From assembly GCF_002854065.1 (NCBI RefSeq), contig NZ_CP024148.1: a stretch of DNA of 62,585 nt; one strand, given 5' to 3'. The position numbers are program-made. Shown one piece after another: positions 48,401 through 51,400 of this stretch (its first letter is position 1; every line of letters begins with the position of its first letter). Origin of the DNA: Escherichia coli. Lineage in GTDB: Bacteria > Pseudomonadota > Gammaproteobacteria > Enterobacterales > Enterobacteriaceae.

Positions 48401-51400
48401 CGTCTGTAGGTTGGATAGCGCGTATATGGCGTGTTTTCTAACTGCTGTGAATAAACTTCAAGCAGAAAGGATTTCGCATCTTTCCAGGCAAGATTAATAT
48501 GCTTTGTCAGAAAATCAGATGCGTTCATATTACGATTCCCCACAGAAAACCGGGGGGAACCGTCCTTTGCTGTTCTGATTTTATGCTGCGCTGGAATAAT
48601 ATTAAAACGCTCGGCGGCAGAAGACAGAAACCTGACAGGATCAATATTTCTGCGAATTTCTGCCATCGTTGCAATTTCGTTTTTCTCTGCCGCCTCATTC
48701 AGAGTCTGAAACATCGTTTCACACAAAAAAGAAGAGCGTTCAAGACTTTTTATTCCTGACTCTGTGAATTGTCTATCATAATCCCGTCGCACATCCTGAC
48801 CAGGATGTTCTCTTTGCGATAATTGCTCTGCCAGATCACGCTGCGAAATATCTGACAATACACTGACAGAGTCGGGTCTTGTGAATCCATTGATTCCGTA
48901 AACCATACCGCGTTGGGGCATACGTGACAATCCGACTGTTGCTTCAGATTGACGGATTCTGGCAAACTTTTTAGGACACGACTTGTAACCTCCCGCTCGT
49001 CCTGACGTTTGCTGAGAATTTCTTTCGTTAAGTTTTTCTCTTGAGTCATATTCTTTTATCCTCTCTTGCAGGAAATCAATTTGTTGTGAAGGGCTTAATG
49101 TCTTGTAAAGTTCCCTTGTTTTCTCCGCCTGGTTAAAAATATGCTTAATCTCTTGGCTTGTTTTATTTAACCAGGTATTAAGTCTCTTTTCTATCTCTTT
49201 GTGTGTTGGTTTCTCAAGTGTTAATGTCCTTGTCTCAATGTAATTCTGACGAAAAAGAGGACTTTTTAAGTTTATGTATTTTTTATCTCCAGGCAATTTT
49301 ACAGCCAGATACTCATTGGTTTTACCAGCATTTCTTATACGAAGTTCACCATACTCTGCAACAATATCTTTGAATACAGAGTAATTTTCAATTTTCTCGT
49401 TCTCTATACGCGAAAGCAACTCACCTTTCAATTCAGAGTGATGCTCTTTGTAAAGATCCCCCTTAACTCTACTTATAATTTTTCCGTAATCCGCATCTTT
49501 ACGCGGATAGTCTTTAGGGCTATCAAGATTATATTTATTATTAATAAATTCCTGTATAGCATCAAGCTGTTCAATTGTATGCCCTTTGGTAACATCTCCC
49601 ACTGGATTCAGGAACTTTTCAGTAATCAAATTTACTTTAGGAATTACAATATGAATATGTGGTTTTCTTTCAACAAGTTCACCAGTGCTATTATCCTGGA
49701 TATGACGAATTTTAGGCAAATGAGCTTCCGCATAAAAAGAGTATTCATCAGGATGATAAGCATTCATCAATAATTTTTTATAATCATCAACAACAGCCTT
49801 TAACACTTCATTCGACACATGACTTTCATGAAAAGACAGAGTAATGTGCAAATAACGTTCCTGACTTTTGTTTTCAATAGAATCAATAATCTTATCTGTA
49901 GTCTGTAAATCACCATCAAGAACAACACGATGATCAAGTTCATCACGCGTGTACTGGCGTTCTGCTTTGCGACCATTTATCAGATAATCAACGATACCAT
50001 CATTACCACCACCGTATCTGACAATCATTTAGCTATCTCCTGAAGGCGATCACGAATACCGATTAGTCCATTTAAAACCTTTTTATAAAGCGATTCTGAT
50101 ATAATACCTTTTAAATGATCTGAATTTAATCGGTGCGCTATTTGATTTATGTTGTTTCCTGCCCAACTCAACTGAGAAAGACAACGTTTGTATTCTGGTA
50201 TGTTACGTTTATCAGATGCATATGTGTTTATTTTACCAATAGTAAGCAGCCTGAAAAATTCAGACTTACTAATATTAAGCTCTTTTATAGCCCTATCGAA
50301 CGGAGCATATTCTTCTTCGGTAAGTCTGAATGTTACATGAACGTTTTTGTTGGTTTTTTTCTTCATATGTCCTCAAGGTTCGTAGAACCGCATAAGAACG
50401 GCTGCATCGTTCGGGGTTTCAAAGGGGCGTCCCCCTTTGGCACACGATTGTAACATGACCGGAACGGTCTTGTGTACAATCGGTATCGTGCCTGTGTTTT
50501 AGAAGAACAAAAAATGCCGTGCATACAGCCCACACAATGACTCACATAATAACCCACAACCAAAAACACACAACCCACACAATCACCCACACTTTAACCC
50601 ACAAAAAAGACCACACCCCCATTGACAACCCACAAAACAACCCACATAATCACCCACACAAACGGCGAGCAAATTGCTTTAAATAAGGTATTATGCCAAT
50701 GTAGGAGGTAGAGAGAGAGAGGAAATGTAACAAATGAAAAAGATCGAGAGTTTATTATCTCCAATATGCGAGGCTATAAACGAAACAAAATCGAAATCAA
50801 AGCAGGCTGTCTTCAATATGTATTTGCAAAATATACTTGAAGCAAAGAAATATTATACATGGGAGCAAATAGCTGATTACATAAACAACAACACCAAGAC
50901 AGAACTAGCCCAAAAGACTTATATAAATATGACAGAGAGGGCTAAAAAAAGACAAAAATGCACTGAACCAAAAGAACAGGCAAAAACCATAGATGTAATT
51001 GATCAGAATGAAGCTAAAGGCGATGAACCGAGAGGGGGGGTAAAAGGTTTTTTTTCAAACATTAGTGAGAACAAAAAAGAAATAGAGCACGATCCAAGTG
51101 CTACGAATGAAAAATTCATAAATAAATATCTTTAAGTAAAGGAGCATTATAAATGAAAAACTCAATCAATTTCATCCTTCAGGGTAAAGGTGGTGTTGGA
51201 AAATCATTCGCGACCGCAATACTGGCACAATACTTTATTGATGAAAATCACATGGATAATATCGTAGTCGGTGACACAGACCCGGTTAATACAACTACGG
51301 TTAAAGTAAAAAGATTAAATGCAGATTTGATACAAATCACTGAAAACAGCAAAGTAATACAATCCAAATTCGATCCAATGTTCGAATCAATGCTGACCAA

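Follow-up and report, generated by a model that had tools for sequence, protein, structure and literature searches.

A Phased ACCCACA Repeat Array beside the Predicted Nick Site of an IncI2 Plasmid Is Probably the Binding Array of the Adjacent orf133 Protein

Introduction

What reads the short direct repeats that lie between the predicted nick site (nic) of an IncI2 plasmid and the small gene beyond it? We addressed this question in a 62,585-nucleotide stretch of Escherichia coli DNA (contig NZ_CP024148.1 of assembly GCF_002854065.1), all of which we call the window. The window is an IncI2 plasmid of the mcr-1/CTX-M type. Of the 547 records that match its segment 50000–51200, 438 do so at 99% identity or more; the 100% matches are many 60-kb IncI2 plasmids of E. 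coli, Shigella and Salmonella, and a representative matching record was typed as IncI2, MOBP, MPF_T. Colistin resistance due to mcr-1 is carried mainly by IncI2 plasmids.

The repeats are built on the heptamer ACCCACA. They stand beside the origin of transfer (oriT) and are followed by orf133, which encodes a 133-residue protein (50734–51135, plus strand) and lies between the array and traL. On the basis of sequence comparisons, we consider it likely that the repeats are the cognate binding array of the orf133 protein and serve both as an operator and as a centromere-like site, the IncI2 counterpart of the stbS/StbA pair of R388 and of the TraK region of RP4. The original prediction for this locus had described oriT-type inverted repeats (IRs) upstream of nikA and about nine direct repeats over 130 bp. 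We found two perfect 8-bp IRs there, and the account of the array also stood, although the repeats run slightly further, to 50663. It had passed over a strong promoter embedded in the array and the 133-residue open reading frame (ORF) that is the best candidate for the binder.

Plasmids that share stbABC/traKLM synteny on the leading side of nic were grouped by Guynet 2011 (PMC3098194), with IncI2 among them through YciA of R721 and its StbB. The 2022 StbA paper (bioRxiv 10.1101/2022.04.29.490116) repeated the assignment for PTU-I2, so this kind of system is already known. In the literature searched, we found no published description of the IncI2 ACCCACA array, nor of the cassette of orf133 and TraL (dominant in mcr-1 IncI2 plasmids, unlike that of R721) and the co-variation rules reported below, and the same literature yielded no experiment on this cassette.

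The Repeat Array and Its Phasing

The array spans 50528–50663, within the 367-bp region between nikA and orf133 that also holds the IRs and the nick motif. It consists of ten good and two degenerate ACCCACA units, all on the plus strand, in three sets (starting at 50528, 50573 and 50628) with strict 12-bp spacing inside each. Set A (50528–50570) has GCCCACA at 50528, ACTCACA at 50540, ACCCACA at 50552 and a degenerate AAACACA at 50564. Set B (50573–50620) has ACCCACA at 50573, 50585 and 50597 and GACCACA at 50609, while set C (50628–50663) has ACCCACA at 50628, 50640 and 50652. Seven units are exact, three are near-copies (GCCCACA, ACTCACA and GACCACA), and two are degenerate slots that keep the phase, the second being an ATTGACA at 50621 that contains the −35 hexamer of the promoter described below.

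Eight of the 19 plus-strand copies of CCCACA in the window sit in one 140-bp stretch. For the shorter motif YCACA, there are ten in the array's 140 bp, compared with a maximum of four per 140 bp on the minus strand. Self-identity at a lag of 12 was 0.549, against 0.378 ± 0.040 in 2000 composition-preserving shuffles, and none of the 2000 reached the array's self-identity at any lag from 5 to 30. Tandem Repeats Finder reported period-12 arrays at 50529–50603 and 50625–50663 plus a 45-bp higher-order unit, and a separate repeat search found three 45-nt copies in the array.

The stretch 50521–50662 (142 nt) is nearly pure A/C, with 66 A, 58 C, 5 G and 13 T. The array would make up roughly the first 40–175 nt of the predicted transferred strand, a position that would suit a signal read on the entering single strand, such as a promoter in single-stranded DNA (ssDNA), a primosome or single-strand initiation (ssi) site, or an aid to termination by the relaxase. 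The composition of the strand argues against this, as does its folding: the minimum free energy over 180 nt was −4.2 kcal/mol (z = +0.40), and 134 of 200 shuffles folded at least as well. To our knowledge, known ssDNA promoters and ssi sites are hairpins. We give a single-strand signal almost no weight. The establishment signal proposed in the original prediction survives in a weak sense, since the array belongs to the first DNA entering the recipient that can be made double-stranded, but the transferred strand itself is unstructured.

A Promoter Embedded in the Array

A sigma-70 promoter for the orf133-traL operon is predicted at 50622–50650 on the plus strand, with TTGACA (50622–50627), a 17-bp spacer and CATAAT (50645–50650), giving 11 of 12 consensus matches. 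Set B abuts the −35 hexamer on its upstream side and set C lies over the spacer, the −10 hexamer and the start-site region. Both hexamers are unchanged in two relatives carrying the same repeat word (our loci L012 and L002), and the figure is 11/12 in a third locus, L003. Short direct repeats about a helical turn apart, arranged in sets around the promoter of the proposed binder's own gene, are the arrangement known from StbA-type systems.

Repeat Words in Related Loci

Ten loci were read, each with a small gene and a ParA-like gene, in that order, after a NikA-type oriT core. All ten have 6–14 direct repeats between nic and the small two-domain gene, and the array starts 24–43 nt past GCCTGT (nic+1) in every case. 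The array ends at or near a TTGACN −35, and TTGAC(A/T/G) occurs in or beside the array in 9/10. The repeated word is ACCCACA in the window, L002 and L012, RCACACA in L003, GCACACA in L005, GGNCACA in L006, AACACACA in L014, GGGGTATA in L004, GGKTACA in L016, ACATAGCA in R721 and L018, and TTKCAYTAAA in L011. These words sort with the N-terminal domain of the small protein. N-domains of the orf133 type pair with words of the form xxxxACA (with GGGGTATA in L004), and the period is 12 bp in 7/8 loci. Those of the YciA type (R721 and L018) pair with ACATAGCA at a period of 11 bp, and the DUF5338 or "TraK family" protein of L011 pairs with TTKCAYTAAA at a period of 10 bp.

When the window was aligned with L002, 66 of 70 heptamer positions were identical (94%) and only 35 of 56 spacer positions (62%), while the promoter hexamers agreed at 12/12. 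This pattern shows selection on the heptamers. In L003, whose small protein is 49% identical to that of orf133, the units align one-to-one with those of the window and position 3 has changed from C to A in 9/9 of them, which is the kind of concerted change expected when a sequence-specific reader alters its specificity. Indels between related arrays comprise whole 12-bp units.

Whole-unit indels in low-complexity, A/C-rich sequence could also be the mark of a neutral slippage repeat, or of intrinsically curved, UP-like DNA that has no dedicated protein. Against both stand the contrast between heptamers and spacers, the unit positions that are kept relative to the promoter across 49%-identical systems with one position changed in concert, and the different words that fill the same slot in 10/10 loci. 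An array without a reader is highly improbable on this evidence.

The original prediction also noted that the units resemble half of a DnaA box. They do end in CCACA or CACA, like TTATCCACA, so the likeness holds for the CACA end; it fails for the remainder of the box, where every 9-mer of the array is at least two mismatches from TTWTNCACA. Allowing up to one mismatch, there are 162 sites in the window and none within 50515–50670. At two mismatches the array is at background level, with 1310 other such 9-mers in the window. If low-affinity boxes clustered here to recruit DnaA of the host, perhaps to open the strands or to aid establishment, it would also have to be explained why relatives in the same enterobacterial hosts carry GGGGTATA, GGKTACA, ACATAGCA or TTKCAYTAAA in the same slot, and why the concerted change in L003 goes with a changed plasmid protein and not with a changed host. 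We find such a cluster scarcely credible and rejected DnaA as the reader.

The oriT Core and NikA

The core of oriT lies between nikA and the array. Inverted repeat 1, CAAAGGGG cgtc CCCCTTTG, was found in a repeat search at 50420–50427/50432–50439 and is kept in all relatives. The same search found inverted repeat 2 (IR2), CGATTGTA/TACAATCG, at 50445–50452/50475–50482. The arms of both are complementary at 8/8 positions. IR2 is the predicted NikA site, and its position corresponds to that of the 17-bp repeat of R64. The nick region, TATCGTG/CCTGTG (50484–50496, plus strand; the slash marks nic), puts the predicted nic at 50490/50491, 8 nt 3' of IR2. This position, which we take from what is known of R64 and RP4, is predicted because the layout matches that of the IncI1 oriT and because TCGTGCCTGTGT is invariant in the alignment of relatives; it was also present in all loci read. 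The IncI1 oriT has the same geometry, an IR followed by the nick, with ACATCCTG/T as the equivalent sequence. After the end of IR2 (50482), the window reads GTATCGTG/CC; the IncI1 equivalent is ACAATTGC ACATCCTG/T. A ribbon-helix-helix (RHH) NikA, an IR, and an ATCnTG/ nick motif 8 nt further on together make this a core of the IncI type.

NikA itself is encoded at 50025–50366 on the minus strand (Pfam NikA-like PF21983, E 2.9e-11; MobC PF05713) and is an RHH relaxosome accessory protein. We also observed a promoter-like sequence inside IR2, TACACA-18-TACAAT with an extended −10 TG, running from 50476 to 50447 on the minus strand toward nikA. By its position, NikA binding there would autoregulate nikAB.

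The array begins about 38 bp from the predicted nick, and NikA and/or NikB might therefore bind the repeats as part of an extended oriT recognition site. The capture of the array along with the oriT core by 2.1-kb plasmids, described below, would fit this idea as well. Two plasmids speak against it directly. R721 and the mcr-1 plasmid pMCR-M19736 have DNA identical to that of the window from nikA through the IRs and the nick to about 50500; past that point come an unrelated array, in which ACATAGCA recurs every 11 bp, and the genes for YciA (159 aa) and for an ATPase of the StbB family. The NikA proteins of the window and R721 are 100% identical (113/113). NikA was excluded as the reader because these plasmids pair an identical NikA with the ACATAGCA array. 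Likewise, in L016, a plasmid from a metagenome, at least 11 GGKTACA units at 12 bp come after the same core (NikA 91%), and the IncI1 oriT used by NikA and NikB has no array past the nick. We therefore regard an extended relaxosome site as very unlikely.

Three alternative cassettes, each comprising an array, a small protein, an ATPase and a third gene, thus stand behind the same NikA/oriT core. The recombination junction is at about 50500, roughly 10 bp 3' of the predicted nick, as judged from R721 (L009), pMCR-M19736 (L010) and L016.

Domain Swaps and Co-Variation

The C-terminal parts of the small proteins are of two types. Type 1, KGFFS..EHDxSA..KFxxKY, always precedes an ATPase of the TraL type (window, L003, L004, L018), and type 2, CFNxxxIAxxAIxxNVSIExIxxWxCxN, always precedes a StbB-family ATPase (L005, L014, L016, R721) whose StbB score exceeds the NCBIfam cutoff. 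The type of C-tail agrees with the type of ATPase in 8/8 loci.

Natural recombinants separate the two domains. One protein, P0072, joins a YciA-type N-domain to an orf133-type C-tail; a TraL neighbor and a ACATAGCA array were both predicted for it beforehand, and both were found. In the opposite direction, P0036, P0047 and the L005 protein join an orf133-type N-domain to a YciA-type C-domain, and they have StbB neighbors and xxxxACA arrays. Among the loci compared, the repeat word is shown to track the N-domain and not the ATPase, the third gene or NikA, and the C-domain type is shown to track the type of the neighboring ATPase, TraL or StbB. TraL was rejected as the determinant of specificity, as ACATAGCA occurs with TraL in L018 and with StbB in R721. 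The general idea of the original prediction, an array bound by a protein of the relaxosome-accessory or partition type, is supported; the binders it had named (NikA, the ParA-like protein and DnaA) are not.

The orf133 Protein

The orf133 product is labeled "hypothetical" or "zinc transporter" in many GenBank- and RefSeq-derived records, the latter name having no backing in any family library. A word-indexed homolog search with orf133 returned close relatives only, and an exhaustive profile search of 1.84 billion representatives gave a family of 62. In the family alignment, residues 1–77 are conserved and the remainder is variable. AlphaFold (AF2) predicted an N-domain of five helices with a predicted local distance difference test (pLDDT) score of 89.5 (range about 85–90 over residues 1–77). 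Residues 78–123 had a pLDDT below 50 and are predicted to be disordered, followed by a short terminal helix. The C-terminal part ends in KGFFS..EHDxSA..KFINKYL. This is the layout of StbA-type proteins, a conserved helical or helix-turn-helix (HTH) N-terminal domain with a flexible C-terminal part, and in the model the fold of the DNA-binding domain (DBD) appears similar to that of StbA residues 1–75 (PDB 7pc1).

At the level of primary sequence the relationship is more distant. With hhalign, the family profile matched R721 YciA at E 2.3e-4 over 66 columns. BLASTP of YciA against P0036 was colinear across both domains. Against NCBIfam StbA_2, YciA scored E 1.3e-4 and R388 StbA E 1.4e-3, both far under the cutoff. 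YciA itself had reached the StbA group only after 7 PSI-BLAST iterations (Guynet 2011, PMC3098194). For the TraK family, we used the DUF5338 protein of L011 in place of RP4 TraK; orf133 did not match DUF5338, and its profile against the L011 protein gave E 0.16. Fold and architecture support membership of orf133 in the StbA superfamily, for which the sequence evidence is marginal.

Comparison with Known Systems

The closest parallel in layout is with stbABC of R388. As in the window, a gene for a small DNA-binding protein (a predicted one in the window) has direct repeats in its promoter and faces away from the relaxase-accessory operon, on the leading side of nic; in the window, that side was assigned by alignment with an IncI1 oriT and from Guynet 2011. 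The repeats are grouped and spaced roughly one helical turn apart; the N-terminal part of the protein is a conserved helical DBD, whereas its C-part varies; and a ParA-like ATPase and a small third gene come next. In R388, StbA's own promoter beside oriT contains 9-bp repeats in two sets of five, with a period of 11 bp, to which StbA binds. StbA is required for stability and restrains conjugation, for which StbB is in turn required (PMC3098194; bioRxiv 10.1101/2022.04.29.490116). The organization of StbA into a conserved N-domain and a variable C-part is described in the same preprint (bioRxiv 10.1101/2022.04.29.490116). The differences are that R388 has TTGCATCAT at 11 bp in a 2 × 5 arrangement, compared with ACCCACA at 12 bp in three sets; that its word is on the other strand, whereas the repeats of the window point toward the gene; that its ATPase is of the StbB type and that of the window of the TraL type (KGGxGK); and that the sequence similarity between StbA and orf133 is marginal. 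R388 also has extra pairs or triplets of repeats at other promoters and the window has none; such extra repeats characterize R388 but are not strictly demanded of the family.

RP4/RK2 (IncP-1) has the same order of a small protein, TraL and a third gene, beside oriT on the leading side. The traK-traL-traM order is recognizable in the window, where the TraL match is strong (E 1e-53) and the TraM-like match weak (E 1.6e-3). There is no detectable similarity between orf133 and the TraK-family/DUF5338 protein that L011 has in the same slot. RP4 TraK has 134 residues, and its region is described as about 180 bp of intrinsically bent DNA and is not known as a regular repeat array. TraK binds between nic and traK (cited in PMC3098194).

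R721, the prototype IncI2 plasmid, shares NikA, the oriT core and the slot with the window, and its YciA is a distant homolog of the orf133 N-domain; the two families have exchangeable C-domains. It differs in having ACATAGCA at 11 bp, another N-domain subfamily, a StbB-type ATPase and a −35 hexamer downstream of the array. TraD of NAH7 (IncP-9), a MOBF plasmid in this respect unlike the window, is a StbA homolog whose footprints cover the −35 and −10 of its own traDEF operon within oriT (bioRxiv 10.1101/2025.01.22.634284). Centromeres of types II and III (ParR/parC of pB171 and pSK41, TubR/tubC of pBtoxis) differ in that they use actin- or tubulin-like NTPases, have no link to oriT, and have unrelated folds (ParR being RHH).

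Seen as a StbA/TraK-type module, the locus offers a handle on the switch of IncI2 plasmids from transfer to stable inheritance and back, and on the requirements of small plasmids for IncI2 mobilization. The natural swaps amount to a ready-made dissection of the family, in which the N-domain would read the repeats and the C-tail would select the ATPase, and this could aid work on the poorly understood R388 and RP4 systems.

Small Plasmids That Carry the Array

About 42 records of 2.1-kb ColpVC plasmids cover the region corresponding to about 50414–50669 of the window, at about 85% identity overall (at least 80% of the probe). The ColpVC copy comprises inverted repeat 1, IR2 in diverged form, the nick motif and an array that lacks a single 12-bp unit but is otherwise whole. 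It ends exactly at the end of the array and includes no orf133. The captured sequence suggests that the array may be useful in cis for the hitch-hiker. These plasmids contain two oriT mimics, which in L007 (NZ_CP011945.1, 2096 bp) lie at 1100–1161 and at about 1325–1590. One is an IncI1/R64-type core that matches about 1200 plasmids of IncI1 size, and the other has the IRs, nic and ACCCACA array of the IncI2 type.

A more tentative and rather unlikely extension is that the array and the orf133 N-domain together act as an exchangeable "address label" that IncI2-type plasmids swap through recombination at two points, one some 10 bp beyond the nick and the other in the inter-domain linker, the array being needed in cis for efficient transfer of the IncI2 type or for hitch-hiking on the positioning system of the helper. 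At least three labels (ACCCACA, ACATAGCA and GGKTACA) stand behind one NikA/oriT core. If the idea is right, any label could be wired to either type of ATPase through the C-tail, and the need in cis would explain why the ColpVC plasmids captured IRs, nic and array as a unit. Diversification would then be driven by the avoidance of cross-talk or incompatibility among co-resident relatives, and the label would be a hidden determinant of mutual mobilization and displacement among mcr-1 vectors.

Proposed Mechanism and Points against It

We propose that the helical, HTH-type N-domain of orf133 would read one heptamer per unit. Subunits would sit head-to-tail, one per 12 bp in three sets, and coat about 135 bp, starting some 38 bp beyond the nick and reaching roughly position +15 of orf133's own promoter. 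With sets B and C occupied, the −35, spacer and −10 would be covered and the orf133-traL-orf243 operon would be autorepressed. In a new recipient that has no repressor, the operon would fire and then shut itself off; such a burst is expected because the orf133 operon leads the entry of plasmid DNA into the recipient. The ParA-like TraL may be contacted by orf133 through its variable C-terminal part. This contact could couple the oriT-proximal complex to plasmid positioning and/or the transfer apparatus, and could modulate relaxosome activity at the adjacent nick. Binding, repression, contact with TraL and the effects on transfer and stability are what we infer from the analysis as a whole.

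Several observations weigh against a binding array with this double role. The period is 12 bp, compared with about 10.5–11 bp, so bound subunits would spiral round the helix instead of sharing one face. There are no phased CYCACA or CCACA pairs elsewhere in the 62.6-kb window on either strand. For the protein, no family match was found for orf133 in Pfam or NCBIfam, neither orf133 nor its family profile matched any PDB sequence, Foldseek with the orf133 model gave nothing significant, and hhalign of the family profile with R388 StbA was weak (E 2.2e-3, probability 13%). The core conjugation set from a transposon screen of TP114 includes neither traL nor orf133, so in vitro transfer may not need the module. 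A pHNSHP45 plasmid with a deletion at oriT stayed stable, and IncI2 backbones hold another ParA/MipZ-like gene that may handle partition. Finally, the co-inheritance of word and N-domain could reflect linkage, because the array directly adjoins the DNA that encodes the N-domain. Linkage has no bearing on two of the arguments drawn from the alignments, namely the pattern of selection on the heptamers and the concerted C-to-A change in L003.

Some of these points would equally favor an array that is an operator and nothing else, with orf133 autoregulating its promoter, the closeness to nic being incidental, and no role in the relaxosome, positioning or partition. The TP114 result and the separate ParA/MipZ-like gene fit such an operator, as do the strong embedded promoter with set C over its spacer, −10 and start, and the confinement of the repeats to this one place in the window. 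On the other hand, 10–12 units over about 135 bp far exceed what repression needs; the operators of R388 have 2–5 repeats each, with ten in stbS only. The place beside nic is invariant in 10/10 loci, synteny with a ParA-like ATPase is obligatory and the type of that ATPase co-varies with the C-tail, and the tiny ColpVC plasmids took the array with the oriT core and left behind the gene that it would regulate. Taking both sides together, a pure operator seems unlikely to us, and an array read by orf133 as operator and centromere-like site remains our preferred reading.

Neighboring Genes and Other Observations

Downstream of orf133, traL (51153–51905, plus strand) encodes a ParA/MinD-type ATPase with the Walker A motif KGGVGKS. 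It matched NCBIfam TraL PRK13886 (E 1e-53; 182 bits, under the 360-bit cutoff) and Pfam CbiA and is the counterpart of RP4 TraL and R388 StbB. The third gene of the operon, orf243 (51883–52614, plus strand), encodes a protein with a hydrophobic segment; its place corresponds to that of TraM/StbC, to which it had weak NCBIfam matches (TraM, E 1.6e-3; StbC, E 2.1e-3).

On the other side of oriT, the ORF list gave a nikB-type MOBP relaxase of 1437 aa (45715–50028, minus strand), identical RefSeq records of which are annotated as LPD7 domain-containing. Within nikB, an 18-bp tandem repeat at 47379–47603 (12.5 copies, with a 54-bp higher order) encodes (Q/E)ATEQ(A/E) hexapeptides in the middle of the relaxase. 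This stretch is probably a flexible linker, and its length may differ among plasmids.

A hicA/hicB toxin-antitoxin pair is located at 53091–53735 on the minus strand, about 2 kb into the leading region, and is the module studied in pHNSHP45 (PMC11878559). Elsewhere in the window there is a perfect microsatellite, (AATATG)x5.2, at 21506–21536.

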